Under the pieces are notes generated by a model. The model saw only the letters and a program-made list of their open reading frames with translations. It ran no database searches and was not told where the DNA came from. A program made the translations under genes and the position numbers. From an uncultured Piscirickettsiaceae bacterium (GTDB taxonomy: Bacteria > Pseudomonadota > Gammaproteobacteria > GCF-002020875), in the NCBI GenBank assembly GCA_964344435.1, contig CAYFNH010000002.1, forward strand, positions 851-64,850: a stretch of DNA of 64,000 nucleotides, given 5' to 3'. Shown here piece by piece: positions 668-58,877 of the stretch; the first letter of the stretch is position 1; every line of letters begins with the position of its first letter.

Positions 668-724
668 TTCCGGGGAGCGCTGCAACGATCTATCCGATCG
701 CCAGGCCCGGAAGCGGTGCACCAC
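668..724 (+). promoter_or_regulatory. Candidate SAH (S-adenosylhomocysteine) riboswitch in the ahcY leader
   Basis: CCGGGGAGCGCUGCAACGAUCUAUCCGAUCGCCAGGCCCGGAAGCGGUGCACCAC. P1 CCGGG/CCCGG, GAGCGCUGC core, internal hairpin CGAUC/GAUCG, CAGGCCCGGAA and a GCGGUGC tail fit the SAH element as I recall it. It sits ~40 nt upstream of the ahcY start. Confidence 0.5.
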
Positions 725-765
725 ATTATCAACTGCGCTCTCGATCTTATTAAACAGGAGATAGC

Positions 766-32797: not shown

Positions 32798-32873
<76 letters not shown>

Positions 32874-33036: not shown

Positions 33037-34188
33037 TTGATGGATATTGAGACACTAATACAGCGCAATCGGGAACAGTTCAAGGCACTTAATATCGAGG
33101 ATCTGTTGACGATCCGCAACCACTCGAACGACTTCAACGGCACCCGGGCCGAACAGGTCAATATGCGCCTGCAGCTGATTGCGCTCGCCTTTGGGGTGAT
33201 GGCTCCATTCTGGATTCCGATCGATTACTACTCTCTCGATCAGATCGCCTTTTACGACATGGTGTGGATGCGTATCGGCTTCTCGCTTTCGATGCTGGTG
33301 ATCGGTTTCTGGGCAACCCAAACCTTCGACATTCACAGCAGTCGAATACGCTTGGCCATGATGCTGCTTCCTCCCGGAATCTTCTATGCCAGCTCTTTAC
33401 ACATACTCGATGGGGCGGTCACCAATGATGCCCTGCTGGTCGGCTACACTTTTTTCCCCTTTCTCATGGTGGTGATGCTGACCATCTTCCCTCTTACCAT
33501 GCTGGAGGGGTTGAGTTATACCGCACTGATTACCCTGTTTGCCCTTGCCCCTCATATCATGCAGGGGGCTCTGTTCAGTGCCGAGTCATTGAAGGACCTC
33601 TGGCTGCTGGGGCTGCTGGCCGGCATCTGCATGTGGCCGGGCATGGCACAGCTGCATATGTTGCTCACCCTCTATCGACAGGCAAGTCGTGACCCCCTTA
33701 CCCGCTTGGTCAACCGGCGCATTCTGATGAAGCTGTTAGAGCAGGAGATCAAATCCTCCCGACAGCAACCAGACCGCCCCCTCTCCATCCTGCTGATGGA
33801 TCTGGATCGGTTCAAGCGCGTCAATGACACCTACGGACATCTGGTGGGGGATCAGGTACTGATCGACTTCAGCAACCTGTTGCAGGAGAGTGTACGCAAT
33901 AGTGATATCGCCGGGCGCTACGGTGGCGAAGAGTTTATGGTACTGCTACCCAATAGTGATGCCGACACCGCAAAGGCCATTGCCAACATCATCCACAAGG
34001 GGTGTCACCAACGCTCCATCGAGGTCACAAACGAGCAACAGGAAATGAGCATTCTCAACTACACCGTAAGCATCGGGGTCGCCCAGCTACAGCCGGGAGA
34101 ACAGGGGCTTCAACTGATCGAGCGGGTAGATGATGGGCTCTATCTGGCCAAGGATGGTGGCCGTGACCGGGTCACTCTGGTCACATAA
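33037..34188 (+). CDS. membrane-anchored diguanylate cyclase (multi-TM N-terminus + GGDEF)
   Basis: 383 aa, ~6 TM helices, then GGDEF domain (RYGGEEFMVLLP). Confidence 0.88.
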   Translation: MMDIETLIQRNREQFKALNIEDLLTIRNHSNDFNGTRAEQVNMRLQLIALAFGVMAPFWIPIDYYSLDQIAFYDMVWMRIGFSLSMLVIGFWATQTFDIHSSRIRLAMMLLPPGIFYASSLHILDGAVTNDALLVGYTFFPFLMVVMLTIFPLTMLEGLSYTALITLFALAPHIMQGALFSAESLKDLWLLGLLAGICMWPGMAQLHMLLTLYRQASRDPLTRLVNRRILMKLLEQEIKSSRQQPDRPLSILLMDLDRFKRVNDTYGHLVGDQVLIDFSNLLQESVRNSDIAGRYGGEEFMVLLPNSDADTAKAIANIIHKGCHQRSIEVTNEQQEMSILNYTVSIGVAQLQPGEQGLQLIERVDDGLYLAKDGGRDRVTLVT

Positions 34189-34198
34189 AGCTCACTTG

Positions 34199-34436
34199 AA
34201 CCTAGATTCCTCAGTTGGACGGGCCAAAGTGTGCGTACAGGCGTGCGCAGGACAAGGCACAACGACGCGTAATAGCCAGCTATTGCAAGGAGTTGTAACG
34301 CAGTAATGCGTGCGCCTGTGCGTGCAATTTGGTTCGTAGCGATCTTCACCCGTTGAGTGAAGCTGGTTTCTTGAGAAATTGTTTGCATAAGAAGATGTTG
34401 AGCCTGCTTCAAGCGGTCAACTGAGGATTCTAGGTT
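34199..34436. mobile_element. MITE-like element, copy 1 (~238 bp, ~20-bp terminal inverted repeats)
   Basis: Ends AACCTAGATTCCTCAGTTGGAC ... GTCAACTGAGGATTCTAGGTT are near-perfect inverted repeats. Non-coding, with internal imperfect palindromes (GTGCGTACAGGCGTGCGCAGG / GCGTGCGCCTGTGCGTGC). A second ~96% identical copy is at 43918..44155. Confidence 0.8.
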
Positions 34437-40655: not shown

Positions 40656-42629
40656 ATGAAACTGCCTCAACTCTCGATCCGCACCCGGCTGCTGCTATTC
40701 TCAATCCTGTTGATTCTGATTGGAGTCAGCATCACGGTCGCGGTTTCACTCTATGTACAGGTACATACACTGTAGAAGAGCTTCCAACACCAGGGCCAGA
40801 AGATCACTGAAATTCTTGCTGCCAACATCCAGACCTCCTTTCGCAACCGGGAGGTCGAAAAACTCAAGGTTCAGCTACAAAACCTGAGACAGGGGGAGCA
40901 TCTTCTACAGGGACTGATTCTGGATCAGCAGGGCACGGTTGTTACCGATGGCAGCGAAGAGAACCAACTGCAGGGGAAACAGATCCCCGACCTGCTGCCG
41001 ATACTACAGAACCTGAAACAGAAGCGTGAAATCACCCAGGCCTGGGAGCACAACAACCACATCGCCATCACCCACCGGGTGGTCACCACCACGGGGGACT
41101 TTCTCGGCTACATCCACCTGGAACTCAGCCGCGACCACATTGACCATGCGACCCACGCACTTTTGCAGCAGTTCCTGGTACTGGAGCTTCTGCTACTGAT
41201 CTTCTCCACCATCGCCGGAGTGCTGCTGGCCAACTACTTTCACTACCCACTCAAGGAGGCAGTCGCATCCGCCAACCGTATCGCAATGGGCAACTATGAT
41301 GTTCCTCCCAACAACCGTTCAGATGAGTTTGGTGAGCTCAGCTGTGCTCTGCAGCAGATGGGACAACAGATCGATGAAACCATCCATGCACTCAATGGAG
41401 CACAACTGGAGATGGAGGAGATCTTTCGCTCAATGACCGATGGCGTGCTGCTAATCGATCGCAGCGGTATCATCACCAAACTCAACCAGCGCATGGAGAT
41501 TCTTTGTCACCGGCTCCATAGTGATCTGGTAGGGCAGCCTCTCAGTATGATCATCGCCGGAGAATACACTCTGGATTCACTCCACGGAGATGGTATCGAA
41601 AAAATTCTGCTACGCCCGGAGGATGAGGTTTCGGTACAGGTATCCGGCGCACTCATCCACCCACCCCACCTCGACCACCCAATCGGCTCGGTCATCGTAA
41701 TCCATGACCTCAGTGACCGCATGCGAGCAGAATCACAGGAGCAGTATGCCGCCTTCCAGGCCGGCATTGCCGAGATGGGGGCATCGGTACTGCATAATAT
41801 CGGCAATGTCATTACCGGCATGACCGGGCACATTATCAAGCTACAGTCCCGCATTCGCCCACTGGAGAAGCTGATCCCTGCGCTCAACCGCTTTGCCGAA
41901 GAGAGCGAGCGTAACGCCAAAGAGTGCGACGATACCGAGACCCTGAGGAGCCGCCTGATCGAGACCACCAAGGTGCTCAAGAGCAGCACCGACAGCTTTG
42001 CGCGCATCCATCAGCAGTTTGATAACCTGAAAAAGCTGGAGAGCGGTATTCGTCATATCGGTGACATCATCTCCATTCAGCAGAGTGCATCACGCCCGGT
42101 ACTTACTGCCACCCGCTTCAACCTCAAACAGCTGGTGGATGACACCTACAGCCTGATCGATGAACGCCTCTCCAAATACTCGGTGGAGTGGCGTGGCCGC
42201 TTCTCAGCCGAGATCACAACGGTACAGCTACCCCGCAACCCACTGATGCAGCTGTTACTCAACCTGATCAAGAACAGTCTCGAGGCGATTATTGCCGAGA
42301 TGCTGGAGAACCAGGAGCTGGTGGGAGTAATCACCCTCACGGTCGAACCACAACCGGATGGTCACTTCAGTATCACCATTACCGACAACGGCTGTGGCAT
42401 CAAACCCGAACAGCTGGAGAAGATTTTCACCCCTCGTTACACCACCAAGTCAACCGGTAGTGGCTACGGGCTTCACTCTGCAATCAACTTTGTACGCCAG
42501 ATCGACGGCAAAATCGAGGCAGAGAGCGACGGTCCCCACAGCGGCGCCCGGATTATCCTCACGCTGCCACTGAAGGTGGAGAAGGAGATTGCTGCAGATA
42601 TCAACCCAACCACCATTGAAATTGGATAA
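40656..42629 (+). pseudogene. sensor histidine kinase (TM-sensor-TM-HAMP-PAS-HisKA-HATPase) with an in-frame TAG after TM1; alternatively an intact shorter CDS from 41079
   Basis: ATG 40656 gives MKLPQLSIRTRLLLFSILLILIGVSITVAVSLYVQVHTL, then TAG at 40773..40775. The same frame continues open (KSFQHQGQKITEILAANIQ...) into track ORF 41079..42629 (PAS, H-box, HATPase GSGYGLHSAINFVRQIDGKIE). Confidence 0.55.
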
Positions 42630-42687
42630 AACTCTCCTATATTGAGGATGAAAGCATCTTGCTTTCTTGTTAACCAGGAGGTGTATC

Positions 42688-43128
42688 ATGAGAGACTTGA
42701 AAACTGTACCAGACAGACTCTTCAACCATGACCTGTTTGATGAGCTGCTTCATGGATTCCTCCGTCCCCTGCCTCGGGAGGAGAAATCTGTTTCCAACCT
42801 GTTGATTCCGCTAGCTGACGTAGTAGAGACCGAATTTGCCTACAGCGTTCGGATGGAGCTGCCAGGGCTGAAACGGGATGATATTCATATCCATTTCAGT
42901 GATGGCATGCTCACAATCCAGGGAGAGAGCATCACCGAAACCCGTGAGGAAGAGGAGATCCTCCACCAGGAGCGTAGCCAACGCAGCTATCGCAGAACCA
43001 TGCGGGTACCTCGTCGTGTCGACGTCGAGCATATCCATGCCGAATTCGTCGACGGCCTGCTGGAAGTGGTACTGCCCAAACTGACCGAGGCAACCACAGA
43101 CGACCCGATGGAGATCAAGGTCGCCTGA
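42688..43128 (+). CDS. Hsp20/alpha-crystallin family small heat-shock protein
   Basis: AGGAGG RBS 8 nt upstream of ATG 42688. Alpha-crystallin domain (…DVVETEFAYSVRMELPGLKRDDIHIHFSDGMLTIQGE…). Confidence 0.85.
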   Translation: MRDLKTVPDRLFNHDLFDELLHGFLRPLPREEKSVSNLLIPLADVVETEFAYSVRMELPGLKRDDIHIHFSDGMLTIQGESITETREEEEILHQERSQRSYRRTMRVPRRVDVEHIHAEFVDGLLEVVLPKLTEATTDDPMEIKVA

Positions 43129-43236: not shown

Positions 43237-43623
43237 TCAGCTTAGCGCATCAACAGTCCGCACAGAATACCGAGGAAAAACTTCATCTTTTGTGATTACC
43301 TCCAACCCTTCTGATTGTGCCTGGGCAATCAACATACGATCAAATGGATCGTTGTGGTGCTTTGGCAGCGCACCTGCACGGTCTCCATGAAAGTTGGAGA
43401 CCGGTAATTTAATAAAGCCTTCATCCTCAATATCAGAATCGAGGTTATCAGGAGCCTCCAATTTCCCCAAGGCCTTTTTGATCGAGATTTCCCAATTGGT
43501 TGCAGCGCTCACATAAACCTGATTTCTGGGGTCGCTGATGCAGCTTTTTGCAGCGGTTCCAAGCCTGGAGTTATTATCCAGCCACCAGAGGAAAACATGC
43601 GTATCGAGCAGGAGTCGCCTCAT
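43237..43623 (-). CDS. vapC: PIN-domain toxin VapC
   Basis: 128 aa; LLLDTHVFLWWL N-terminus and conserved acidic residues. Overlaps the upstream antitoxin gene by 4 nt. Confidence 0.8.
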   Translation of the reverse strand: MRRLLLDTHVFLWWLDNNSRLGTAAKSCISDPRNQVYVSAATNWEISIKKALGKLEAPDNLDSDIEDEGFIKLPVSNFHGDRAGALPKHHNDPFDRMLIAQAQSEGLEVITKDEVFPRYSVRTVDALS

Positions 43624-43853: not shown

Positions 43854-43917
43854 TTCGTTTTCTCCTGATTGCAATTAGCTAACTTAGCTATATTGTACAA
43901 TCACCCTTGTGATTTTC

Positions 43918-44155
43918 AACCTAGATTCCTCAGTTGGACGAGCCAAAGTGTGCGTACAGGCGTGCGCAGGACAAGGCACAACGACGCGTAATAGCCAGCT
44001 ATTGCAAGGAGTTGTAACGCAGTAATGCGTGCACCTGTGCGTGCAATTTGGTTCGTAGCGATCTTCACCCGTTGAGTGAAGCTGGTTTCTCGATAAATTG
44101 TTTATATAATAAGATGTTGATCCTGTTTCAAGCGGTCAACTGAGGATTCTAGGTT
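43918..44155. mobile_element. MITE-like element, copy 2
   Basis: ~96% identical to 34199..34436, same terminal inverted repeats, same orientation. Confidence 0.8.
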
Positions 44156-44172
44156 CAACCACAGTTTGCACA

Positions 44173-45212: not shown

Positions 45213-48200
45213 CTATCGGAACAGGGGCTGGCGCTGGTCATGCGCACTCCCGCCCCAGAAGCGATCGGCATTGAGTTTGGTTGCATCCGGGTGTTTACTG
45301 ACCGAGAGGATGCTGTACTCCTGCTGTTGAACGTCCCGTTTCAGTGGGCGTTGGTAACATTCACCATTCTTATCCCAAACCGCCATCACCATCGGGTGCA
45401 GCGCACTCTCTCCGCGCTTGACCACCAATGCAATCTCACCAGAGGCCAGTTTTACCGTGGTACCTGGTGGGTAGATCCCGAGCTCTGCAATCAACACCTT
45501 GCTCAACTGCACGTCATAATGCCCCTTTTTGCTGGAGACAAACTGCTGCATGATCTGCCGGGGAGTACCGGGGCTGCGGTAGCGGCGTGGTGAAATCATC
45601 GCACCATAGCGATCAGACAATGCAATCAACCGCGCCTCTAGCGGGATATCCCTGGCATGATAGCCATTGGGGTAACCGCTGCCATCCATCATCTCATGGT
45701 GATAGGCCACCGCATTGAGCCAGGTACGGTCGGTCACCCCCATCTTGATCAACGCCTTGACACTGTTTTTGGGATGCAGGCGAATGTGCATCTGGTGAAA
45801 AGTACTCAACGTCCCCTCCATCTCATGGAGATCATTTTGCATTGGGTAGAGCCCCAGGTTTTGGGTCAGACTGGCGCAGGAGAGCGCACGAATCGTGTGC
45901 TCACTCCAGCCAAGGCGCTGTGCCGTCAACACCGCCACCATGGTGTTCTGAATGGTACGCATGATGGTGTGTGGAAAATGGGTGTAGAGATGGATCACTC
46001 CGATAAAGAGGTCTGCATCCTCAGTCAGTTTCGTAACCACCTCGTCCGCCAGCTCGACAATATCCTCGGAGAGGTTATAGCCATCCTGGGCATAGCTGGA
46101 ATAGAGCTTCTCGAGCCGCTCCACCAGCTCTTCTACATATCGGCTTGCCGTGGGCACACGTCGCAGATGGTTGAAGTGTTCTCGGGTCTGCTCCCAATCC
46201 AGCTGCTGCAACGACTCAATCAGGGCCTCCTTGCTACGGCTGGTACGCTGAACAAAGGAGGTGATCAGCTCTTCATCACTCTGGGCCGACATCTGCTTCA
46301 ACAGGTACTGGTTGACCACATAACGCAACTCGTTATGATCCAGTGGTTTGCTCATGAAGCCGTCACAACCTGCCTCAAAAAATTCATCCTGATAACGCTG
46401 TTCGGTATAGGCCGTCAGGGCGATGATCGGAGCCTCGCAACTCTGCTCTCGCAGAATGCTGGTTGCCTCAACCCCCCCCATGACCGGCATCTCCATATCC
46501 ATCAAGATCAGGTCGAAGTGCTCCTGCAGCGCCCGCTCAACCGCCTCCTTGCCATTGCTGGCAACCACCACCGAGGCCCCCACCTGCTCCAGCATACGCT
46601 TCTCCAGAGCCTGCATGATCGGCACATCATCCACCACCAGCACCTTGCCGGAGACTCGTTGATGTTGCGCAGAGCGCTCCTGTGGTTCATTCACAGAAGA
46701 CTTCAGTGGAGTGCGACCGACAGGGCGATAGGGGAGTTTGAGACGAAAGATCGAGCCAACCCCAAGCTCACTGGTCACATCCATCGCCCCCCCATCAATC
46801 TGGCCAACTGGAAAGCAACATAGAGGCCAAGCCCGTGCCCGGAGAATGTGCTCTCCTTCTGCTCTATCCGCTCCTTGAGCCGCCCCAGATCTTTCTCGGA
46901 CATCCCTACACCGGTATCCTCCACCTTGAAAAACAGGTGCTTCGTATCGTACCAGCAGGTGAGGCTGATCAATCCATGGTGGGTAAATTCAACCGCATTG
47001 TCCAACAGATGGGCGATGATCTGGGTGATACGGTGAGCATCCCCGTTGAGCTGGATATCCTGCTTGCCGGGGGGATGAAGCTGGAACTCCAGCCCGGCAT
47101 CATGAACGATGGTGATATAGTCGTGCTCGATATCCTTGAGCAGCACCGAAAGGCTGTAGTGGGTCTCATCCAGATCCAGAGTGCCACTCTCGATCTTGGA
47201 CATATCGATAATGTCGCCCACCAGCGAGAGCCGTTTGCGATCTGCCTTGGCAAAGGCCAGCGCCATCTGCCGCTCCTGCTCCATCCACTGTACATCGTTG
47301 GGATCATACTTGAGGGAGATAAATTTGATCGCCTCCCCATGCTGATCCATCACCGGGATAATCATGGAGCGGTTCCAGAAGGTGGCTCCATCCTTTCTGC
47401 GGTCCATAAGATCACCGTACCAGACCTCCCCCTTGCCAATCATCTCCCACATCTTCTGGTAGAAGGCCTCTGAATGTTCACCGGAGTTGAAGATACGGTG
47501 GTTTTCTCCGATCAGTTCACTACGCGAGTATCCGGTCAGCTCACAGAACAGGTCATTGACGTAGATAATTTTTCCTTCCCGGTCGGTAACACTGACATAG
47601 GTGCGCTTGTCCGCTTCCGGCACCGGGTATCTCCCCTCCTGTTGCACCATCTCGGGCAGGGGCTGTCCGCCCTGTGTCTTATGCTGCTCCAGCTGCTTGA
47701 ATCGACTCCAGCAGCTGGCGAGCGAGAGCGCTGTCTGTAGCAACCGTTTTGGTTCGACTGGCTTCCTGAAGTAGTCAAAATCGACCCCTACCTCTGCATG
47801 AAGCTGCTCCAGCTCATAATCGGAGTAGGCGCTGCAAAAGATGATGCGCACATTCCGGTCCACCGTCCGGATCATCTTTGCGGTCTTGACCCCATCCCAT
47901 CCCGGAGGCATCCGCATATCCAGCAGAATCACCGCATAGGGGCTGTTCTCGGCCAGCGCCTGCTTGACCATCAGGAACCCCTCCTTGCCGCTCAATGCAC
48001 AGTCGTGTTCGAAATAGATGGGGGTATCACTGGAGATCTCCATATCCCCCCCATCATTGCCGTCATCTCATGCAGAACAGGGTCAATCCCGGTGTCGTGC
48101 CGGAAGATGGTTGCATAGGTATCGTGTACTTGTTTGCTGTCGTCAATAGAGAGTAGCCGCCACCTCGGCTGCTGAACCTCCTCACTATTGATTGGCTCTC

Positions 48201-48225
48201 CCACCTGACGTCTCCCCTGCCTCAT
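45213..48225 (-). pseudogene. REC-PAS-HisKA-HATPase-REC-HD-GYP multidomain signalling gene split into three ORFs (47992..48225, 46775..48043, 45213..46784) by two frameshifts at G7 tracts
   Basis: ORF 46775..48043 ends ...GHGLGLYVAFQLARLMGGRWM*. ORF 45213..46784 begins MDVTSELGVGSIFRLKLPY (the end of the same HATPase_c domain), then REC (VLVVDDVPIM...LILMDMEMPVMGG) and HD-GYP (HHEMMDGSGYPNGY). One extra G in the run ATGGGGGGGCG (~46786-46793) would give ...LMGGAMDVTSELGVGS.... A second G7 run (~48046-48052) separates the N-terminal REC fragment; +1 G there gives ...MTAMMGGDMEISSDTPIYF.... Confidence 0.7.
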
Positions 48226-48269: not shown

Positions 48270-51200
48270 TCAGAGCAGTACCTGCTCTACTCCATCCTGC
48301 TCCACTGTCTGCAGGAAGCGCTCCTGCCACCCTTGACCATGGAGCTGTTTTACCAACTCTACCACCAGATAGTCTACCTCCAATCCACTACCAGGTTGAT
48401 AACGAATCAGCCCCTGCTGACAGGAGGGGCAGGAGGTCAGAATCTTCTTCGCCTGCGTCAGTTCACCACAATTCTTCTTCAGCTCACGCTCCTTGCGGAA
48501 CTTCACCTGGGTGGCAATATCGGGCCGGGTTACCGCAAAGGTGCCCGACTCACCACAGCAACGGTCAGAGAGCTTCACCGTTGCCCCGGTCAGTGCCGTA
48601 GCCACCCGCTGCGGCGCATACTGCTTCATCGGCGAGTGACAGGGATCATGGAAGAGGTACTCGGTATCACCTTGCCCATCCGTCAACTTCACCCCCTTCT
48701 CCAGCAGGTACTCATGGATATCGAGTAGCCGACAACCGGGGAAGATCTGCTCGAACTGGTACTGCATAAGCTGATCCATACAGGTACCACAGGAGACCAG
48801 TACCGTCTTGATATCGAGATAGTTGAGGGTGTTGGCAATACGGTGGAAAAGAATACGATTACCCATCGAGATCTGCTCACTCTTCTCCAGCTCCCCAACT
48901 GCACGCTGTGGATAGCCACAACAGAGGTAACCCGGTGGCAGCACCGTCTGTACATCCAGCTCATAGAGCATACTGAGGGTAGCCAACTCCACCTGTCCGA
49001 AGAGCCGCTCGGAACCACAGCCGGGGAAGTAGAACAGTGCCTCCGACTCGATACTGGTAGTGCGCGGATTACGCACAATCGGCACAAAACGGTTGTCCTC
49101 GATACCCAACAGGGCACGCGGACTCTTCTGTGCCATCCCCCCCGGCATTGGACGGTGGAAGAATTGCACCAGCTGCCCCTTGAACTCCGGTTTGCCGCTG
49201 GTCGCGGTTGGGCGCTTCGTCCGTTTAAGCAGGCCACCAGCATGCATCAGTTGATATCCCATGCGCTGCAGCGCATAGCTCCAGGTGACCATAGCGGTAC
49301 GCATGATGCGAATCAGGCGTGGGTCGGTCACATTGAGAAACTGCATCGCCAGCCACCCCGCCGGCTTGAACCAGCGTTTGCGCTGGCGCTTGAGGATGGT
49401 GCGCATCAACACGGTAACATCGCCAAAGTCGATATTGACCGGGCACGGCGTTTCACAACGATGACAGACGGTACAGTGGTCGGCCACATCGTTCATCTCT
49501 TCAAAATGGCGTAGCGAGATCCCGCGGCGAGTCTGCTCCTCGTAGAGCACCGCCTCGATCATCAAGCCGGTGGCGAGAATCTTGTTGCGTGGCGAGTAGA
49601 GCAGGTTGGCAGCCGGCACATGGGTGGTACAGACCGGCTTGCACTTGCCACAACGCAGACAGTCCTTGACCATATGGTTGAGCTCTCCCAGATCATTGGC
49701 CTCCAGAATCAAGGCCTCCTGCGCCAACAGCTGCAACGACGGAGTATAGGCATTATCAAGCCCGGAGCCTGCCATCAGCTTGCCGCGATTGAAACGCCCT
49801 TGCGGATCGACCTGCTGCTTGTAGCTGCTGAATTCAGCCACCTCCTGCTCACCCAGATAGTGCATCTTGGTGAGGCCAATGCCGTGTTCCCCGGAGATGA
49901 CTCCGCCCAGCGAGGTGGCCAGCGCCATGATGCGATCCACTACACGGTCTGCCTCCTGCAACATTGCATAATTATTGGAGTGAACCGGAATATTGGTATG
50001 AACATTGCCATCCCCTGCGTGCATGTGGGTAGCAACAAAGAGTCGACGATTCTTCACCTCGGCGTGGAGCGCATCCATTCTACTGCGCAGGCTCTCCAGC
50101 GCCTGATTGGCAAACAGCTCCTTGAGCGGACGGGCCAGCTCACGCTTCCAGGAGATACGCAGCGCTCCACGTTGAATCAGACGGAATACCGTGCTCTCCG
50201 AATCGAGCTCATCGTTGACCGCCAAATTGAGCTTGCGATACTTCAGATCCAGTGAGTCTCGCAAGGTTTGCCAACGCTGCCGCACCCGCTCCAGCAGGGC
50301 CAGTGCCGCTTCATGTTTGGTATGGAGAATCTGCTGCTGCTCGCTGCTGTCGGCCAGTCGCGCCAGCTGCTCCTGGCTACCCAACACCGTCTGGATCAGC
50401 GCCTCCAGCTCTTCCAGCCCCCCAAGCTTGTTCTCGATCGACTGCTCGATGTTGATGCGCTCGATGCCATCTCCATAGTCGGCCAGTCGATCCAGCGGAA
50501 TCACCACATCCTCGTTGACCTTGAAGGCGTTGGTATGGGCTGCAATTGCCGCGGTTCGGGTACGATCAGACCAGAATGAGGTACGCGCCTGCGGACTGAT
50601 GGCCACAAATCCCTCTGCACCCCGACGTCGGGCCGCCTCCACCACCGCATTCACCGCCTGCTGCAATACCGTCTCGTCTTCACCACCGATATCGGCCAGC
50701 AGCACCATTTTCGGCAGATCCGATCGAGCCGCCTTGGAGCTGTACTTGACCGCCTTTACATAACGCTCATCAAGGTGCTCCAGACCGGAGAGGGCCACCC
50801 CTTCCGCCTGCTGCAGGATCTCGATGGTCTCGACAATGGCCGGGACGGCACGGTGCAGGTCGGGATCGAAAAACTCCAGGCAGACCGTATGGGTCAGGGG
50901 CGAAGCCGGATGCAGCAGAAATACCGCCGAGGTGATAAGCCCATCACACCCCTCCTTCTGGGCACCGGGCAACCCCCCCAGAAACTTGCTGGTAACGTCC
51001 TTGCCCAGACCCGGCTTGCGCAGCTGTTGTGCCGGAATTTGCAATGTTGCGACCGCCCCCTTCGGGGTCTTGCCGTCCTTCTCATAACGCTGGATCTGAA
51101 ACTCGGCATGGGGTTGATCATGCAACTTGCCCAGATTGTGGTTGGTGCGGGTCACCTCCAACCACTCTGCCTGCGGGGTCACCATTCTCCAGGAGAGCAG

Positions 51201-52100
51201 GTTATCCAGTGTTGTACCCCAACGCACCGCCTTCTTGCCACCGGCATTCATCGCAATGTTGCCGCCAATGGTGGAGGCGTGCTGCGAGGTTGGATCCACC
51301 GCAAAGATCAGTCCTGCGGCACTGGCTAGCTCACTGACCCGATAGGTAACGACTCCCGACTCCACCGCCACGGTGGCTACCGGCTCCTCCACACCGGGTA
51401 TCTTCTGCCTGACCACCGCACCCAGTCGCTCCAGGCGCTCGATATTGATGACCACACTGTCCGCCTCCAGCGGTACCGCACTGCCGGTATAGCCGGTGCC
51501 CCCTCCGCGCGGGATGATGGTCAGACCCAGCTCGATGCAGACCTCGACAATGTCGCGCACCTCCACTTCGCTATCCGGGGTAACCACCACGAACGGAAAC
51601 TCGACACGCCAGTCGGAGGCATCGGTAGCATGTGAGACCCGTGCCAGCCCGTCGAACTGGATGTTATCCCTGCGTGTCACCTTGGCCAGTGCACGTTCGG
51701 TCTTCTTGCGGAAGGTGGCCTGATTATCAATCCAGGAGCGGAACTGCTCCACCGCCTGACGTGCCCGCTCCACCAGCTGCAGTGCCAGCACATTACCATC
51801 GGCTCGCAGCTCAATCTGATCCAGTCGGTGTCTCAGTGCCTGCACCAACGCCCCACGACGACCACTGTTGTCGATCAGGTCATCCTGAATATAGGGGTTG
51901 CGACGCACCACCCAGATGTCACCCAGCACCTCAAACAGCATGCGTGCGGAGCGCCCGGTCTGGCGCTGCCCACGGAGCTGGTTGAGCACATCCCACATCT
52001 CCTCCCCGAGAAAACGGATAACGATTTCACGATCGGAGAAGGAGGTGTAGTTATACGGAATCTCGCGGATTCTCGGTGCATCTGGAGCAGTGGTGGTCAT
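48270..52100 (-). CDS. YdiJ-like giant FAD-linked oxidase / Fe-S oxidoreductase fusion (DUF3683 + GlcD-like + 4Fe-4S + GlcF-like CCG domains)
   Basis: 1276 aa. FAD-binding PCMH region ([16 protein letters not shown]); ferredoxin-type cysteine clusters ([23 protein letters not shown]); two Cys-rich CCG-like segments near the C-terminus. Confidence 0.75.
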
Positions 52101-52437: not shown

Positions 52438-53277
52438 CTATCTTCCCTTCTGCCGCGCCTCTTCCAACGCCTCGCAGAGCAACTTCGCCCCCTCCACCAA
52501 ACGGGGGCCGTGGCGTTGCAGAAGATCCGGAGGAACATGATAAAGATTTTCCTCCCGAACAGCCTGCAGCAGCGGGAAACGACTCCAGCTATCGAGCCAC
52601 TCCGGACGGGACTCATCCATACCACTGGCAATGATCACCTCCGGATTGCGCTCCAGCACCGCCTCTACACCAATCTGGGGGGAGAGGCTGTCAAGCCCGG
52701 CAAAGACATTGCGACCACCACACAACTCAATTACGTGACTGATGATCTGCTCCCCATTGATGGTGATCAAGGGCTGGTTCCAGACCTGATAAAAGACATC
52801 GACCAAATGCTTTCCCTGGTACCGGTTGCGCAGCTGCTGCAGATGGTTGCGGTAGTCGTGAGCCTGCTCACCGGCCTGCTGCTCACGCCCCAACACCCCC
52901 CCCAACTGCTCCATGACGGTGGCCACATCCTCCAGTCGACGAGGCTCCGAGATATGGAATTTGAAGCCAAGCTGGCGCAGCTTTTCCAGCTCACCCGGCG
53001 CATTACCACTCTCCCATCCCACAATCAGATCCGCTCGACTGGCAATGATCGCCTCCAGATCGAGACGGTTATACCCCCCCACTTGAGGAATCCTCCCTGC
53101 TGCCTCGGGGTAGTTGCTGTAATTCACGGTACCGACCACCTGTTCCCCGGCACCGATTGCGAACAGCATTTCGGTCAGGTGTGGTGCCAGACTCACCACA
53201 CGCAGGGCGTGACGCTCGTCAGCCTGTACGGCAAAGCTGAGAAACAGCAGGAGCAGTCGAATCAAAGAGGCAGCCAT
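52438..53277 (-). CDS. btuF: vitamin B12 ABC transporter periplasmic binding protein
   Basis: 279 aa with signal peptide, BtuF/FecB-like fold (RVVSLAPHLTEMLFAIGAGEQVVG). Confidence 0.8.
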   Translation of the reverse strand: MAASLIRLLLLFLSFAVQADERHALRVVSLAPHLTEMLFAIGAGEQVVGTVNYSNYPEAAGRIPQVGGYNRLDLEAIIASRADLIVGWESGNAPGELEKLRQLGFKFHISEPRRLEDVATVMEQLGGVLGREQQAGEQAHDYRNHLQQLRNRYQGKHLVDVFYQVWNQPLITINGEQIISHVIELCGGRNVFAGLDSLSPQIGVEAVLERNPEVIIASGMDESRPEWLDSWSRFPLLQAVREENLYHVPPDLLQRHGPRLVEGAKLLCEALEEARQKGR

Positions 53278-54032
53278 GCAACCCGCCCCTGCGCCCGAAG
53301 TTGCACCATCCCGGTGTCGTAGAGTCGATCCATATTTTCCGAGGTTGCCAGCACCTCAACCCCCCCCTGCGCCACCTCACCATGGCCAAACAGCAGTAAC
53401 AGATGGGTGCAATAACGCATCGCTAGATTGATATCATGCAGCACCATCACACTGGCTGCAGCTTGCTGTCGAACCGACTCGGTCAGCTGCAGGAAGATCT
53501 GCTGCTGATATTTGGGGTCAAGATGGGCCTCCGGCTCATCCAGCAGATAGAGCTGTGGCTGCTGCGCCAGAATGGTGGCGATGGCAACCCGACGACGCTC
53601 CCCACCGGAGAGGCTCTGAACAGTGCGCTGCTGAAGTGCATTGAGCTCCATCACCTCCAGTGCCCACTCTACCCGTTTCCGGTCTTCCGCACCCTCTCCA
53701 CGCAGCAACGTGGTATGGGGATGGCGCCCCATCATCACCTGATCCAGTACCGTGGTGGGGAAGATGTCATCCTGATGCTGGAAAACCAGCCCAACCCGAC
53801 GTGCAACTTCACGACGATTAAGGTGGGTTAACGGTTGACCATTGAGCAAAATCTCACCCTGATTGATCGGATGCAGCCCTGCCAGTGCGCGCAGCAGGGT
53901 ACTCTTGCCCACTCCATTGACCCCCAGCACCCCCCAGATCTGTTCAGGTTCAATCCGCCAATCCAGCCGCTCACAGATCGATTTGTCCGCAATGGAGAGA
54001 GAAAGTTGATTGACTTGCAACACCGGACTCAC
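53262..54032 (-). CDS. btuD: ABC transporter ATP-binding protein (cobalamin/iron-siderophore type)
   Basis: Walker A GVNGVGKST; ABC signature LSGGERRRV; Walker B LYLLDEP. Confidence 0.85.
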   Translation of the reverse strand: MSPVLQVNQLSLSIADKSICERLDWRIEPEQIWGVLGVNGVGKSTLLRALAGLHPINQGEILLNGQPLTHLNRREVARRVGLVFQHQDDIFPTTVLDQVMMGRHPHTTLLRGEGAEDRKRVEWALEVMELNALQQRTVQSLSGGERRRVAIATILAQQPQLYLLDEPEAHLDPKYQQQIFLQLTESVRQQAAASVMVLHDINLAMRYCTHLLLLFGHGEVAQGGVEVLATSENMDRLYDTGMVQLRAQGRVAWLPL

Positions 54033-55018
54033 CGCCCACTCCGTTGCAACAGATAGAGGAAGAGAGGTACACCAAGCATCGCCGTCACCACCCCGACCGG
54101 CAGCTGCTGTGGTGCCAGCAGCGTACGTGCCAGGGTATCGGAGAGAATCAGCAACCCGCCCCCCAGCAGCACCGTGGCCGAGACCAGCAGACGATGATCC
54201 CCGCCGACCATCAGACGAATCATGTGTGGCACCACCAGCCCGACAAATCCGACACTACCCGCCAGGGTAACCGCCGTTGCCGTCAGTAGTGAGGCCAGCA
54301 GAAAGAGGGTCAACCGCAGTCGTTCCACTGCAACCCCAAAGGCCGCAGCCTGTGCCCCTCCTCGGGTGAGCACATTGATCTCACGCGCCAATAGCAATGC
54401 AATGGCAGTACCCAACAGCAGCAGCAGAGATTCCCATCCAGGCAGATCGGGCTGCCCGAGATCCCCCATCAACCAGAAGACCATCCCCCGTAGCGCCTGA
54501 TCGGGGCTTACCGCCAACAAGAAAGTAATCACTGCTCCCCACCCTGCAGCCACCACCACCCCGGTCAACAGCAGCCGCATCGGCTCCCAGCTTCCATGCA
54601 GACGCGCAAGCCCAAACACCAGCAACATCGACAACAGGGCTCCACCAAAGGCGGCCGGTGCCAGCCATACGACAGAGAGCCCCGTCATCAATGCCAACAG
54701 CGCTGCCACTGCCGCCCCACCAGACACACCCAGCACATAAGGGTCTGCCAACGGGTTACGCAGCAGAATCTGCATCAACAGCCCGGAGAGCGCCAACAGA
54801 CCACCAACCACAAAGGCGGTGACAACTCGCGGCAAACGCAGCTCCAGCACCACCGTGGAGAGCACACCTGCATCACCCCCCCGCAGGATCTGCCACAGCA
54901 ACTCCCAACTCACACTGCTGTTGCCAAGCTTCAACGAGAACAGCGCAGCCAACAGCACAAAAGCAACAAACGGGAGCAGTCGCAGGCTGTTGTGGGCGGT
55001 AGTGGGCAGGGCATCCAT
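54029..55018 (-). CDS. btuC: FecCD-family ABC permease (cobalamin import)
   Basis: 329 aa, ~9-10 TM helices, FecCD pattern. Confidence 0.85.
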   Translation of the reverse strand: MDALPTTAHNSLRLLPFVAFVLLAALFSLKLGNSSVSWELLWQILRGGDAGVLSTVVLELRLPRVVTAFVVGGLLALSGLLMQILLRNPLADPYVLGVSGGAAVAALLALMTGLSVVWLAPAAFGGALLSMLLVFGLARLHGSWEPMRLLLTGVVVAAGWGAVITFLLAVSPDQALRGMVFWLMGDLGQPDLPGWESLLLLLGTAIALLLAREINVLTRGGAQAAAFGVAVERLRLTLFLLASLLTATAVTLAGSVGFVGLVVPHMIRLMVGGDHRLLVSATVLLGGGLLILSDTLARTLLAPQQLPVGVVTAMLGVPLFLYLLQRSGR

Positions 55019-55159
55019 AGGCTGGCTATTATCCCCTCAGTTGAGAGAACTTCAAACGGGGCTGCACCACTCATTCTGGAAAGGCCGGAAATTGGTCTCC
55101 TGCAGAAAAGTCCCGTTTGACTTGGTAAAACAATCTCTATATGATCCGCCTCCTGTTTT

Positions 55160-55400
55160 GGGTTCTCTGCTCAATATCCATTGAACAGGGTGAAAAGGGA
55201 AGTCTGGTGCGCTCAACCACAGCAACTCCAGCGCTGCCCCCGCAACGGTAGGTGAGGATAATCGGATCACACGCCACTGCATCGATGATGTGGGAAGGCG
55301 ATTCGAACGGTACACAGAGACCACTCACAAGCCCGGAGACCTGCCCGAGACAATACGTAGGCCAAATCGCGGCGGGCGATAGCCGGGCAACGCTACTGCT
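55160..55400 (+). promoter_or_regulatory. cobalamin (AdoCbl) riboswitch in the btuB leader
   Basis: Conserved GGTGAAAAGGGAA...GGTGCG...CTGCCCCCGCAACGGTA core, B12 box ACGCCACTG, and downstream GGGAAGGCG. It sits ~100-300 nt upstream of the btuB ATG (55478). Confidence 0.8.
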
Positions 55401-55477: not shown

Positions 55478-57328
55478 ATGAACAGAATCAGTACCCTCTC
55501 TGTTGCCCTGTTGGCAACGGCTACCCCTTTTTCCTTGATGGCTGCCAGTGAACTGGAGCCGGTGATTGTGACCGCAACCCGTACCGCGCAAACGGTGGAT
55601 GAGAGCTTGGCGGCAGTCACAGTACTATCTCGCAACACCATCGAACAGAGCGGTGCAAGCAACCTAATGGAACTGCTAGCAGGTTATCCCGGAATCTATG
55701 TATCAGGTAAAGGTGGTGCTGGAACCGAGCAATCGATATTTTTGAGAGGGACAAACTCGGATGCTGTATTGGTACTGATTGATGGAATCAAATTGGGATC
55801 CGCTACCACTGGACAACCTTCTTTCGCCCATTATCCACTATCGAACATTGAAAAAATCGAGATAGTCCGCGGCCCACGTTCCGCAATTTACGGAAGTGGA
55901 GCAATTGGTGGGGTAATCCAGATTTTCACAACAAAAGGTTCCACAAATAATAAAACGATCACAACACTTGGGGTAGGCTCACTCGACACACACAAAATAT
56001 CTATTACAAACAGTGGATCAATACCACAACTAAATTACTCTTTTACAGCAAGTCATTTCAGAACAGAAGGAATTACCTCTAAATTGGGTGAAAGTGGAAC
56101 CGAAGCCGATCGGGACGGGTATGAAAACAACTCATTCGGTCTATCTCTTAGCAGCTACCTATCGGATTACACAGACATTTCCGTTCAATGGATGTATGCC
56201 AATGGAGAGGTTCAACTGGATGACCACCAATATGATGCACCAGGCGGAGCCTATTCTGATACCCTGCAACAATCTATTGGTACAACTCTGAATCACCAGG
56301 TCAGTGAACACTGGGACAGTAAACTTAAAATCGGTTATGTAGAAGACCTTTCTCAGACCTATGACAGTAACCCATCCACTATTGATACCTATAGAACCTC
56401 TGCCACCTGGCAAAATGATCTTTACATCGATGACAACACAATAACCCTTGGCGTTGATCATACTCAAGACAAGATCTCTTCTACAAAAAATTACTCTAAC
56501 AACCGTGTGCAGGAGGATGCCCTGTTTGGTCAGTACCAAACCAAGACCTATAACGGAGACTGGTTACTCGCATTTCGACACATTGATAACAACAGCTTTG
56601 GCTCACACAACACTGGCAATATCGAGTACGGGACAGAAATCTTTGACCACTTAAGAGTTACTGCTGCATATGGTGAAGCATTCCATGCACCAGATATCAA
56701 TGATCTTTACTGGCCTGTTCTAGGCAACACCTCCCTTTCTCCAGAAACATCTAAAACATACGAGATCGGTTTCAGATTCAATATTTTTTCTGCCAAATGG
56801 AAAACTTCACTCTATCGAACTACGATAAAGAACTTGATCGAGTGGGCTGATTCTGGAAGCGACCTTGATGGAGATGGATGGGATGACTGGATTCCCAGCA
56901 ATGTAGGTAAAGCGCGGATTAAGGGCATTGAGGTTGAGGCCGAAACCTCGATCAGCGGTTGGGACAGCCTGCTATCTCTCTCCTACATAGACCACAAAGA
57001 TACCACTGTAAACAAAAGACTCATTCGAAGACCCATGTGGTCATACCGAGCTGCTGCCGACAAGCAGTACAACGAATATACATTTGGTTTAGCACTGCAT
57101 GGTCAATCTTCCGCTTTCGACGACAAGAACAACACCAGAACACTGGGAGGGTATACCTTGGTTGACACCTATATTAGGTACATGATGAATCCACAAACAA
57201 CTTTAAACGCTACAGTAACCAACCTCTCAAACCGGCAATACACACATGCCCTAGACAGTTCTACTCCCAGAAAAGCATATAATGCTCCTGATCGTGAGTT
57301 GATGTTATCGGTAAACTACGAGTTTTAA
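55478..57328 (+). CDS. btuB: TonB-dependent vitamin B12 receptor
   Basis: 616 aa. Signal peptide, TonB box EPVIVTATR, plug domain, 22-strand barrel, C-terminal aromatic residue (…SVNYEF). Confidence 0.88.
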   Translation: MNRISTLSVALLATATPFSLMAASELEPVIVTATRTAQTVDESLAAVTVLSRNTIEQSGASNLMELLAGYPGIYVSGKGGAGTEQSIFLRGTNSDAVLVLIDGIKLGSATTGQPSFAHYPLSNIEKIEIVRGPRSAIYGSGAIGGVIQIFTTKGSTNNKTITTLGVGSLDTHKISITNSGSIPQLNYSFTASHFRTEGITSKLGESGTEADRDGYENNSFGLSLSSYLSDYTDISVQWMYANGEVQLDDHQYDAPGGAYSDTLQQSIGTTLNHQVSEHWDSKLKIGYVEDLSQTYDSNPSTIDTYRTSATWQNDLYIDDNTITLGVDHTQDKISSTKNYSNNRVQEDALFGQYQTKTYNGDWLLAFRHIDNNSFGSHNTGNIEYGTEIFDHLRVTAAYGEAFHAPDINDLYWPVLGNTSLSPETSKTYEIGFRFNIFSAKWKTSLYRTTIKNLIEWADSGSDLDGDGWDDWIPSNVGKARIKGIEVEAETSISGWDSLLSLSYIDHKDTTVNKRLIRRPMWSYRAAADKQYNEYTFGLALHGQSSAFDDKNNTRTLGGYTLVDTYIRYMMNPQTTLNATVTNLSNRQYTHALDSSTPRKAYNAPDRELMLSVNYEF

Positions 57329-57352: not shown

Positions 57353-58276
57353 ATGGTTAACTATTTTCCTTCCAAGCAAAGCCATTTCGCCTTTCATACG
57401 CGTGCCCTCTATCTGTTTATCACGCTCTCCGTCCTGATCCATGGGTTCATACTATACAACTGGAAAGAGCCTCTCCAATTCGACTTCGGGGGGCAACAAC
57501 TCAATCAGCAGACCCTACAAATTGCGCTGCGTACACCTACCCCCAGACATGTCGAAGTTGAACCTGCTGAGAAACCGGTAGAGCAGGCTGTTGAGCCTCC
57601 GCCCCCCCCTGTGGAAGAGGTGGCAGTCAAACAGGAACAGTCGGTAGAGGTCATTGAAGAGCCACCCCCGCAACCTGAACCTAAACCTGATCCTGATCCT
57701 GAGCCTGAGCCTGAGTCTGAGCCTGAGCCTGAGCCTCAAGTCATTCAACAACCCTCTCCTCCTGCACCCAAACCAAAAAAACAGCACGTTCCCTTTCAAC
57801 AGAAGAAGGCAGTAAAACCGGTTACAACCAAGCCGGTTAAATCAGTCGCAGCTGAAAAGGTGATTGATCCGACTCCGGTCAAACCAGTAACAGATCCCAA
57901 ACCTGCCCCCAAATCAGCTCCTGAAGAAAAGACTGCAGAAGAGCCCGAAACCAAGCTCAACGAGAGCGAAGCCACCCAACAATCCATCGCCATGATCCGC
58001 CGTCTGATTCAAGGTGAGCTCGGGCGGCACTTTCAATACCCCAGGGTGGCACGCCGTCGTGGATGGGAGGGGAAGGTACAGCTTGAATTTACCGTACTAC
58101 CGGATGGAGCAATCACCAACATCCGCATCATGCAGGGCAGCCAGTATAAAATACTGGATCGTTCTGCCGTGAATACCATGACCCGTATCCACCACCTCAA
58201 GCAGATCTCCGAGGGGATGCTGCGTGCCCCTGTGCGCATGGAGATCCCGATCATCTATCAACTCAGCAACCGTTAA
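57353..58276 (+). CDS. tonB: energy transducer TonB
   Basis: N-terminal TM anchor, Pro/Glu-rich spacer with (EP)n and (PK) repeats, conserved C-terminal TonB domain. Confidence 0.85.
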   Translation: MVNYFPSKQSHFAFHTRALYLFITLSVLIHGFILYNWKEPLQFDFGGQQLNQQTLQIALRTPTPRHVEVEPAEKPVEQAVEPPPPPVEEVAVKQEQSVEVIEEPPPQPEPKPDPDPEPEPESEPEPEPQVIQQPSPPAPKPKKQHVPFQQKKAVKPVTTKPVKSVAAEKVIDPTPVKPVTDPKPAPKSAPEEKTAEEPETKLNESEATQQSIAMIRRLIQGELGRHFQYPRVARRRGWEGKVQLEFTVLPDGAITNIRIMQGSQYKILDRSAVNTMTRIHHLKQISEGMLRAPVRMEIPIIYQLSNR

Positions 58277-58280
58277 TACC

Positions 58281-58877
58281 ATGTCCAAAGAAGAGAACCA
58301 CAAACAACGCATGCAACGTAAAAAGGCGGTGATTGATGCCTCCATCGCCAAGGCCGACCGTGAACAAGGGGTACTCCTGGTACTGACCGGCAACGGCAAG
58401 GGCAAGTCCAGCTCGGCCTTTGGCATGGTGGCACGTGCACTGGGGCATGGACTACGTGTCGGTGTGGCGCAGTTTATCAAGGGTAGCTCCGATACCGGTG
58501 AGGAGGCCTTTTTCAACCAACACCCCAACGTCAGCTGGCATGTACTGGGCGAGGGCTTCACCTGGGAGACACAGAATCTTGCTCAGGATATTGAAACCGC
58601 TCGGAAGGGGTGGGCCGTGGTCAAAGAGATGCTGGACGACGACTCCGTTGATCTGATCGTGCTCGATGAGCTCACCTATCCACTCAAATATGGCTGGCTT
58701 GATCTCGACACCATATTAAACGACCTCAAGGGGCGCCCTCCAATGCAACATGTGGTGATCACCGGCCGTGGTGCACCGGATGCTCTCTGCGAGGCCGCAG
58801 ACACGGTCACTGACCTGAAGGATGTCAAGCATGCCTACCGTGCTGGAATCAAGGCTCAGCAAGGGATTGACCTGTAA
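58281..58877 (+). CDS. btuR: cob(I)yrinic acid a,c-diamide adenosyltransferase
   Basis: GVLLVLTGNGKGKSSSAFGMVARALGHGLRVGVAQFIKG P-loop is the CobA/CobO/BtuR signature. ATG at 58281 inside track ORF 58224..58877. Confidence 0.88.
   Translation: MSKEENHKQRMQRKKAVIDASIAKADREQGVLLVLTGNGKGKSSSAFGMVARALGHGLRVGVAQFIKGSSDTGEEAFFNQHPNVSWHVLGEGFTWETQNLAQDIETARKGWAVVKEMLDDDSVDLIVLDELTYPLKYGWLDLDTILNDLKGRPPMQHVVITGRGAPDALCEAADTVTDLKDVKHAYRAGIKAQQGIDL

Follow-up and report, generated by a model that had tools for sequence, protein, structure and literature searches.

In Bordetella pertussis, a C6/C7 change in a coding tract of bvgS switches the sensor kinase: a one-base change in a short G/C homopolymer truncates a two-component sensor protein, and the two alleles interconvert and are both observed in cultures (PMC1891110). 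In the thymidine kinase gene of HSV, a G7 run is rescued by very low-level frameshifting; a -1 slip on G_GGG_GGG would restore the frame (PMC5009743). Unlike the motifs of dnaX/IS-type -1 programmed frameshifting, motifs of this class perform poorly in bacteria: G_GG.G_GG.U in E. coli yields 0.018% shifting without a stimulator (PMC4066793). On the protein side, a close architectural counterpart is PA2572 of Pseudomonas aeruginosa, a receiver followed by a YN-GYP domain, for which c-di-GMP hydrolysis is reported to be undetectable although signalling is retained (PMC3411652). The locus described here shares traits with each of these systems.

It lies on the minus strand of a 64,000-nucleotide stretch of DNA, analysed as a whole and referred to below as the window. 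Three overlapping ORFs in frames 1, 0 and 2 together form a single split gene, with a -1 step at each of the junctions J1 and J2 (Table 1). Each step falls at a G7 run, the coding strand reading ...GCAATGATGGGGGGGATATGGAG... at J1 and ...AGATTGATGGGGGGGCGATGGATGTGA... at J2. Addition of one G to each run gives, by computation, an unbroken product of 1004 amino acids, in which all conserved motifs are kept and no extra stops were found. The sequence-only reading had joined the ORFs into one gene, which is confirmed by their frames and by the end-to-end alignment of the 1004-aa product with orthologues, and had ascribed both breaks to single-G deficits, which agrees with the restored frame; its label "giant" is too strong for a gene of this size. 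Long G/C runs make up only about 22 of the 3013 nt of the locus, so the position of both lesions within such runs is not due to chance.

Table 1. Features of the split gene and their positions in the window.
Feature	Position	Strand	Description
ORF1, 77 aa	47992..48225	(-)	gene start; receiver 1 beta1/alpha1 with the D28-D29 acidic pair
J1, first -1 frameshift, G7	48046..48052	(-)	variable loop of receiver 1; no equivalent tract in orthologues
J1 30-nt segment (TGATGGGGGGGATATGGAGATCTCCAGTGA)	48027..48056	(-)	near-copy of the J2 segment
ORF2, 422 aa	46775..48043	(-)	remainder of receiver 1, PAS, DHp remnant without H-box, truncated HATPase_c
DHp remnant	47045..47287	(-)	interval between PAS and HATPase_c; no HisKA match, no conserved His; 42-column gap relative to P0003/P0004
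HATPase_c	46725..47044	(-)	reconstruction residues 395-501; conserved residues in the N, G1, F and G2 boxes; broken by J2
J2, second -1 frameshift, G7	46787..46793	(-)	in HATPase_c, at the conserved LMGG
J2 30-nt segment (TGATGGGGGGGCGATGGATGTGACCAGTGA)	46768..46797	(-)	ancestral flanks
ORF3, 523 aa	45213..46784	(-)	final HATPase_c strands, receiver 2, helical linker, HD_5 (QN-GYP), C-terminal extension
Third tract, G8, in frame	46472..46479	(-)	encodes MPVMGGVE in receiver 2
HD_5 / HD-GYP-like domain	45504..45974	(-)	residues 752-908; QN in place of HD at 45858-45863; HHEMMDGSGYP at 45669-45701

Two proteins, P0001 (1003 aa) and P0002 (999 aa), are orthologues encoded by single ORFs. They are 65% and 47% identical to the 1004-aa product, align with it across 98-99% of its length and share its architecture. 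At J2 the orthologues read LMGG-T/R-I-D/K; the match of ORF2 runs to MGG and that of ORF3 starts from the next residues, which locates the shift no more than a codon away from the run, and reconstruction with G8 gives a gap-free alignment at the conserved LMGG of HATPase_c. The actual ORF2 ends in ...LMGG-RWM*, and its HATPase_c is truncated past the G2 box, while ORF1 ends in a 17-aa out-of-frame tail past J1. Neither orthologue carries the tract found here at J1, J2 or the third site, the codons being ATG GGG GGA (G6) at J2 and ATG GAT GGC ATT at the third site. The frameshifts are absent from both orthologues, and their sites are thus not conserved features of the family.

Pfam analysis of the reconstruction revealed REC, PAS, HATPase_c, REC and HD_5 domains. 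The receiver profile PF00072 matches in two stretches (3.7e-39), with the motifs LLDMRMP (D103) and LILMDMEMP (D577) conserved. The ATPase domain (PF02518, 1.6e-21) covers residues 395-501 and profile positions 1-110 of 111; N410, D437, G439, G441, F461, G463 and G467 are invariant across the three orthologues, and without frame correction the domain breaks off at residue 480. By contrast with PF00512 in P0003 (1.5e-17), HisKA gave no match even at E<=10 in the inter-domain segment, the reconstruction, P0001 or P0002. The H-box ...FFASMSHELRTPL... of P0003 and P0004 is covered exactly by a gap of 42 columns, common to the orthologues. These two hybrid kinases (REC-PAS-HisKA-HATPase-REC-Hpt) are closest to the N-terminal 680 residues, at 36-38% identity, and the domain order matches theirs up to receiver 2; they keep the H-box and an Hpt end, whereas in the present family the H-box helix is missing and an xN-GYP domain takes the place of Hpt. 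Of the architecture proposed from the sequence alone, REC-PAS-HisKA-HATPase-REC-HD-GYP, all elements stand in their order except HisKA, which is absent by Pfam, with HD_5 as the output domain.

The output domain matches PF13487 (2.8e-22) and the solved HD-GYP proteins 4r8z, 5z7c and 4mcw (5e-9 to 4e-7). LTQNLG stands opposite LHDIGK of 5z7c, the catalytic HD dyad being replaced by QN, and this replacement is kept in P0001 and P0002. The xN form is typical among the nearest 27 relatives sampled, only two of which have HD or YD. The HHExxDGxGYP motif is present as HHEMMDGSGYP, with H203, H204, E205, G211 and Y212 invariant (alignment A3). As in PA2572, compared here by architecture rather than by direct homology, a receiver precedes an HD-GYP-like domain in which the dyad is replaced and HHExxDGxGYP is kept; the present proteins differ in having QN and in placing the REC-xN-GYP module behind a REC-PAS-HATPase module. 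Before its interruption, the protein had the architecture REC-PAS-(DHp remnant without His)-HATPase-REC-(QN)GYP, a degenerate kinase joined to a non-canonical HD-GYP-like output. Judging from these motifs, it probably lacked both self-phosphorylating kinase activity and c-di-GMP phosphodiesterase activity, and its role was probably that of a signalling or adaptor protein rather than of a c-di-GMP hydrolase. A phosphorelay coupled to c-di-GMP hydrolysis, as first proposed, does not follow, because the protein and its intact orthologues lack HisKA and the H-box and carry QN for the HD dyad; the tempting annotation "phosphorelay-controlled c-di-GMP phosphodiesterase" is corrected accordingly.

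The G tracts themselves are peculiar to this lineage. Met-Gly-Gly motifs are coded as a G8 tract at three of three sites in this gene and at none of six elsewhere, with an expectation of about 0.027 per site. An ancestral G5 with a two-G insertion, considered instead of G8, was rejected at J2, where it would leave the invariant MGG one Gly short; the loop at J1 is not conserved, and the orthologues do not fix the ancestral tract length there. The 30-nt segments around J1 and J2 are near-copies of each other, identical at 24 of 30 positions, and the ancestral flanks of the J2 segment make it the likely template for the J1 segment. The two broken sites may accordingly share an origin and perhaps are not independent hits. 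From their near-identity there is a hint that a mutable tract, perhaps together with its frameshift, can spread within a gene by short templated copying.

Flow-based and nanopore sequencing errors classically appear as single-base homopolymer deficits, and both defects are of this form. If the two tracts were truly G8 and had been under-called, the gene would be intact. Several of the assemblies are built from the runs of one project, which would favour such an artefact; however, the G7/G7/G8 state recurs in assemblies from three pipelines (MEGAHIT, Logan and, by protein provenance, the NCBI MAG), several runs and at least two projects. All six loci and 15 contigs retrieved show it, one of the contigs being present in 8 samples. 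The loci come from Logan assemblies of ERR2281803/04/06/07 and SRR22722185 and from a MEGAHIT assembly in ENA; each matches the window at 100% identity, and no gap interrupts the 2.8-21.6 kb compared. Not a single indel difference occurs in stretches of up to 21.6 kb that include about a dozen G/C runs of at least 7. The window holds 17 such runs, close to random expectation, three of them in this gene. Apart from the two broken runs, the other 15 (five 8-mers and ten 7-mers), including one within the same gene, are all in frame, so that a survey for like defects returned none; the genes concerned, with end-to-end family matches, include MetH, GshA, GshB, ApbE, ThiD, RsmE, ABC transporter genes and TonB. 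Two random errors would both strike this gene with a probability of 3/136 = 0.02. Three ORF overlaps elsewhere in the window (18258/18935, 53262/52438 and 57353/58224) were considered as further frameshifts and rejected, each representing two complete, different genes. The breaks are not a sequencing or assembly artefact; that reading is largely refuted and retains only a very small probability, and the systematic under-calling once suggested is not supported by the identical independent assemblies and the in-frame runs. Homopolymer frameshifts in metagenome-derived genomes should thus not be "repaired" by reflex: reproducible across assemblies, those described here indicate real loss or silencing of the gene in one lineage, whereas it is intact in two co-occurring relatives.

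The lesions interrupt conserved domains, J2 falling within the Pfam HATPase_c match, and relatives have intact orthologues. A two-component-type signalling gene has probably been inactivated by a double frameshift fixed in the population, giving a recent pseudogene or, equivalently, a locus locked "off". Among the options of the sequence-only reading, the decaying gene is the best supported of the three, given the reproducible lesions and intact orthologues. In the mechanism proposed, all three Met-Gly-Gly motifs of this lineage would have become ATG GGG GGG G.., creating G8 tracts absent from orthologues, and two of these would then have lost one G each by slipped-strand mispairing during replication. 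The later lesion could have arisen neutrally at a further hot-spot, or one 30-nt segment could have passed it to its near-copy through short-homology template switching or micro-conversion. Unlike two random errors, another neutral mutation is to be expected once a gene is dead. Judging from the domain anatomy, ribosomes from the native start would stop 17 codons past J1; J1 would leave beta1/alpha1 cut off from the remainder of receiver 1, and J2 would drop the final strands of the ATP-binding domain. For a full-length product, ribosomes would have to slip by -1 twice in succession, each time on a very poor slippery motif, and such a product would effectively not be made.

Several observations stand against inactivation. 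The frame-corrected gene shows no further damage, and a relative-rate test with 81 versus 65 unique (lineage-specific) changes gave no significant acceleration (p ~0.2). With neither extra damage nor a significant rate difference, loss of constraint is not demonstrated, and the inactivation, if real, is recent; an intact-looking remainder is expected soon after such an event. The occurrence of three G8-type tracts in one gene is unexpected, and both downstream ORFs open with an ATG 2 nt past a G-run, a possible Shine-Dalgarno mimic. The tract excess and the ATG placement would fit a switch or split expression as well. Inactivation of an ordinary kind nevertheless remains the most likely reading: as in unitary frameshifted pseudogenes at mutational hot-spots, relatives have an intact orthologue, the indels lie in slippage-prone runs and the remainder looks intact. 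It differs from these in that the lesion sites are 30-nt near-copies, perhaps reflecting dependent hits.

Reversible phase variation, in which the G tracts would grow and shrink by replication slippage and toggle the signalling protein in subpopulations, was among the options first raised. Homopolymer tracts that set the frame by their length lie inside the coding sequence, one of them close to the 5' end, the three lineage-specific ATGGGGGGGG tracts exceed the codon-usage expectation for one gene, and bvgS offers a precedent for a sensor kinase switched in this way. However, in contrast to the interconverting bvgS alleles, only the broken state is observed, with two tracts off together, so that reversion would need two events; the change would moreover be a contraction from a presumed G8 rather than a C6 to C7 expansion. 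At the consensus level, all assemblies agree on the broken state. An exact look-up of six hypothetical ON-form proteins (covering G8/G8, G8/G7 and G7/G8 and two possible start codons) among ~15 billion proteins returned none, and both fragments form singleton clusters at 90%. Tracts of G7-G8 are short for a high-rate switch, and runs of equal length in housekeeping genes (metH, gshA) suggest that such tracts are not especially unstable here. Phase variation is therefore unlikely and, with no G8 allele on record, unsupported. The locus could also still be expressed, either by low-level -1 ribosomal or transcriptional slippage or as separate polypeptides, ORF3 above all; the two routes taken together are improbable to a similar degree. 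In the zero frame of both sites, the G of the ATG and the two following GGG codons, (AT)G_GGG_GGG, formally constitute an X_XXY_YYZ heptamer, on which a -1 slip would yield an orthologue-like protein, as in the HSV thymidine kinase case. The difference from HSV and from dnaX/IS-type programmed frameshifting is that here stimulator and conservation are both lacking and two shifts are needed. G_GG.G_GG.N is among the weakest shifters in E. coli, and the yield from two in succession would be vanishingly small. A search for recoding stimulators by RNA folding of the 86 nt downstream of each junction found none convincing: the region past J1 folds no better than shuffles (z -0.18), and that past J2 only marginally better (z -1.66; 11/200 shuffles).

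For the second route, ORF3 contains a complete receiver and output domain and could act as a stand-alone REC-(QN)GYP response regulator of PA2572/RpfG-like architecture. Its ATG lies 7 nt ahead of the ORF2 TGA, and the G7 run could serve as the Shine-Dalgarno mimic, with ORF3 coupled to the overlapping ORF2 stop (ATGGATGTGA); internal initiation driven by G-rich runs has been observed in E. coli reporters (PMC4066793). Against expression by either route, the orthologues have no frameshifts, the splits fall within the folds of receiver 1 and HATPase_c rather than in linkers, and lineage-specific substitutions in the ORF3 part are, if anything, in excess (48 versus 30). A composite of these ideas would treat the three ATGGGGGGGG cassettes, two of which are the 30-nt near-copies and each of these followed by an in-frame ATG, as a built-in multi-switch that combines slippage of DNA, RNA or ribosome with internal initiation at G-runs and has spread by short-homology template switching. 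This is quite unlikely; if true, a single locus could give the full-length protein, a sensor-only fragment or the stand-alone REC-(QN)GYP regulator.

Among the JGI metagenome contigs scanned for close relatives, only distant hybrid kinases of at most 38% identity were found. Among species-representative genomes, the full architecture is present only in two MAGs of "uncultured Piscirickettsiaceae". Fusions of a degenerate kinase to a degenerate HD-GYP domain are a small family, with three members so far.

The three minus-strand reading frames that cover the broken gene occupy frames 1, 0 and 2 in succession, so that each junction is a -1 step. Insertion of one G in each of the two G7 runs, J1 and J2, yields a single uninterrupted product of 1004 aa, 98–99% of which is covered when it is aligned with P0001 (1003 aa, 65% identity) or P0002 (999 aa, 47% identity), each of them the product of one ORF. 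The sequence-only reading, according to which the three ORFs are one gene and one extra G restores the frame at each G7 junction, is borne out. The alignment runs without gaps across the conserved LMGG motif at J2, placing this lesion within one codon of the run. As judged from domain matches and the orthologue alignment, both junctions lie within folds and neither in a linker: at J1, receiver 1 is split between beta1/alpha1, which includes the acidic pair D28-D29, and the remainder, and at J2 (residue 480) the Bergerat ATP-binding fold loses its terminal strands.

Pfam analysis of the reconstruction revealed two Response_reg domains, PAS, HATPase_c (residues 395–501, across J2) and HD_5. The REC, PAS, HATPase, REC and HD-GYP-type modules proposed from sequence inspection are thereby recovered, and HisKA has to be removed from the list, since it has no match in the reconstruction, the isolated PAS-to-HATPase segment, P0001 or P0002, even at E<=10; in the related hybrid kinase P0003 it is matched at 1.5e-17. 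All three family members lack 42 alignment columns, where P0003 and another hybrid kinase, P0004, carry the H-box (...FFASMSHELRTPL...), and their DHp remnant comprises the second helix only (...LSLVGDIIDMSKIESG...). The N, G1, F and G2 residues of HATPase_c are kept. In the C-terminal domain, LTQNLG and DRYGAM stand opposite LHDIGK and DIFDAL of the solved HD-GYP enzyme 5z7c, while HHEMMDGSGYP is kept; both orthologues likewise have QN. When the C-terminal 364 residues were used in an exhaustive profile-free search (E<=1e-30), 510 cluster representatives were retrieved, mostly stand-alone proteins of 370–400 aa. The HD position is xN (LT[AQSEM]N...) in 25 of 27 sampled relatives, and HHExxDGxGYP is invariant. 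The intact orthologues share the missing HisKA and the QN, which are thus traits of the family rather than signs of decay in the window lineage. This QN-GYP domain belongs to the non-canonical HD-GYP class, an example being the YN-GYP protein PA2572 of Pseudomonas aeruginosa, for which c-di-GMP phosphodiesterase activity is undetectable but which still functions in signalling (PMC3411652). With the H-box absent and QN in place of HD, there is no support for the suggested coupling of a phosphorelay to a c-di-GMP phosphodiesterase; REC-PAS-(His-less DHp remnant)-HATPase-REC-(QN)GYP is the best description of the predicted ancestral product.

The gene contains a third, in-frame G8 tract. The orthologues have ATG GGG GGA (G6) at the J2 site, and ATG GAT GGC ATT at the third site, while the J1 site, a variable receiver 1 loop, is unrelated in sequence; the three ATGGGGGGGG tracts are thus specific to the window lineage. 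Met-Gly-Gly is encoded as ATG GGG GGG G.. at 3/3 sites in the broken gene versus 0/6 in the 45 other genes of the window, the expectation from window codon usage being 0.027 per site. Relative to the orthologues, the in-frame tract arose by four substitutions, every one towards G. The 30 nt at J1 (TGATGGGGGGGATATGGAGATCTCCAGTGA, 48027–48056) and J2 (TGATGGGGGGGCGATGGATGTGACCAGTGA, 46768–46797) are identical at 24 positions (17/23 outside the run), and, of all 128,000 window positions, none matches the J2 segment as well as the J1 segment does; the peptides correspond too (MMGGDMEISS and LMGGAMDVTS). This near-identity suggests that a short stretch was copied, by templating, from one part of the gene to another. 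Since the J2 flanks are ancestral, J2 is likely the template and J1 its copy. The two lesions may thus not be independent: copying may have carried a contraction from one site to the other, or may have started from an already contracted tract. Six mismatches between the segments argue that the copying was not very recent.

It is very improbable that the tracts are truly G8 and the gene intact, as systematic homopolymer under-calling would imply. Identical coding for the 523-aa and 422-aa fragments was found on 15 public contigs. Six loci were retrieved, from one ENA MEGAHIT assembly (ERR2281805) and five Logan assemblies (ERR2281803, ERR2281804, ERR2281806, ERR2281807 and SRR22722185, the contig of the last being present in 8 samples). 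All six show the state G7/G7/G8 and match the window at 100% identity with zero gaps over 2.8–21.6 kb, a span with about a dozen G/C runs of at least 7. Such indel-free agreement across runs and assemblers makes a homopolymer-prone platform an unlikely source. The window holds 17 runs of this length, three of them inside the broken gene; a survey of the 15 other than J1 and J2 found none that breaks a gene, and they lie in unbroken genes with products matching their families end to end, including MetH (2137 bits), GshA (1–402 of 402), GshB, ApbE, ThiD, RsmE, PBP/ABC/permease genes and TonB. Two random errors would both strike the broken gene, with 3/17 of the runs, at p = 3/136 (~0.02). That the frameshifts are real can be demonstrated from metagenome assemblies.

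On balance, two G8 tracts were probably shortened to G7, by replication slippage, leaving the gene inactive and fixed in that state among the sampled population. No damage beyond the two frameshifts was found in the gene, and a relative-rate test was not significant (81 vs 65 unique changes, p ~0.2), indicating that inactivation is recent or that constraint has not yet measurably relaxed. Inactivation of genes by homopolymer slippage, two-component sensor genes included, is a well-known phenomenon. The locus would add an example from an uncultured environmental gammaproteobacterium, of modest interest for its real frameshifts, near-copied lesion sites and rare fusion family. Phase variation, with the G tracts as an on/off switch, is unlikely: the bvgS C6/C7 tract is a good precedent (PMC1891110) and the surplus of tracts is suggestive, but every assembly is in the doubly-off state, from which two reversions would be required, no ON protein is on record, and runs of equal length occur in housekeeping genes. 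Continued expression despite the frameshifts is equally doubtful. G_GGG_GGG is formally a slippery heptamer at which a -1 slip gives the exact orthologue-like sequence, and very low-level frameshifting rescues a G-run indel in HSV thymidine kinase (PMC5009743); however, G_GG.G_GG.N ranks with the poorest shift motifs in E. coli (0.018% without stimulator; PMC4066793), downstream RNA structure is unconvincing (z -0.18 and -1.66), the orthologues have no frameshifts, and two serial shifts would give negligible full-length yield. A more plausible variant is translation of ORF3 alone as a putative PA2572-like REC-(QN)GYP regulator; translation would begin at the ATG 2 nt past the G-run, which can act as a Shine-Dalgarno mimic, as noted for G-rich runs (PMC4066793), and would be coupled to the overlapping ORF2 stop.

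The family joins a His-less kinase module to an HD-GYP-like output of the non-canonical class, a rare type of fusion. Two MAGs of one sequencing project, both labelled "uncultured Piscirickettsiaceae", were the only genomes in which its full architecture turned up, and JGI metagenomes gave no example. The presence of SoxYZ near P0002 suggests that its host is a sulfur-oxidising gammaproteobacterium. Beside soxYZ, ~5 kb downstream in this intact locus (L008, 17978–21368), are a REC-GGDEF-EAL gene and a DUF3369-HD_5 gene.

A distance of 44 nt separates the broken gene from the end of the upstream gene for a 1276-aa fusion protein, and the two may be co-transcribed; this synteny is absent from the P0002 locus. 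Two further signalling genes, for a diguanylate cyclase and a histidine kinase, lie nearby. A ~244-nt element without an Rfam match occurs in two intergenic copies, 95.9% identical and in opposite orientation, with 22-nt terminal inverted repeats (TTCAACCTAGATTCCTCAGTTG / CAACTGAGGATTCTAGGTTCAA). The end of all five Logan contigs falls inside it (window 44129), and the element is therefore probably MITE-like, with multiple copies in the genome.

Features of the broken gene and its surroundings in the window
Feature	Coordinates	Strand	Remarks
ORF1	47992–48225	minus	77 aa, frame 1
ORF2	46775–48043	minus	422 aa, frame 0
ORF3	45213–46784	minus	523 aa, frame 2
J1, G7 run	48046–48052	minus	...ACG GCA ATG ATG GGG GGG ATA TGG...
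J2, G7 run	46787–46793	minus	...AGA TTG ATG GGG GGG CGA TGG ATG TGA
Third tract, G8	46472–46479	minus	same gene, in frame
SAH riboswitch	666–747	+	56 bits; upstream of ORF 766–2184
tRNA gene	32801–32873	minus	
GGDEF diguanylate cyclase	33037–34188	+	
~244-nt element, two copies	34196–34436, 43915–44158		
HAMP-PAS histidine kinase	41079–42629	+	
Hsp20 gene	42667–43128		
PIN-domain toxin ORF	43237–43623	minus	small ORF upstream
1276-aa fusion protein gene	48270–52100	minus	DUF3683, FAD_binding_4, FAD-oxidase_C, 4Fe-4S, CCG; GlcD/GlcF/LdhH-like
FecCD/ABC/periplasmic-binding-protein operon	52438–55018	minus	divergent from cobalamin-riboswitch genes
Cobalamin riboswitch	55143–55362	+	105 bits; upstream of TonB-dependent receptor
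TonB-dependent receptor	55478–57328		
TonB	57353–58276		
Corrinoid adenosyltransferase	58224–58877
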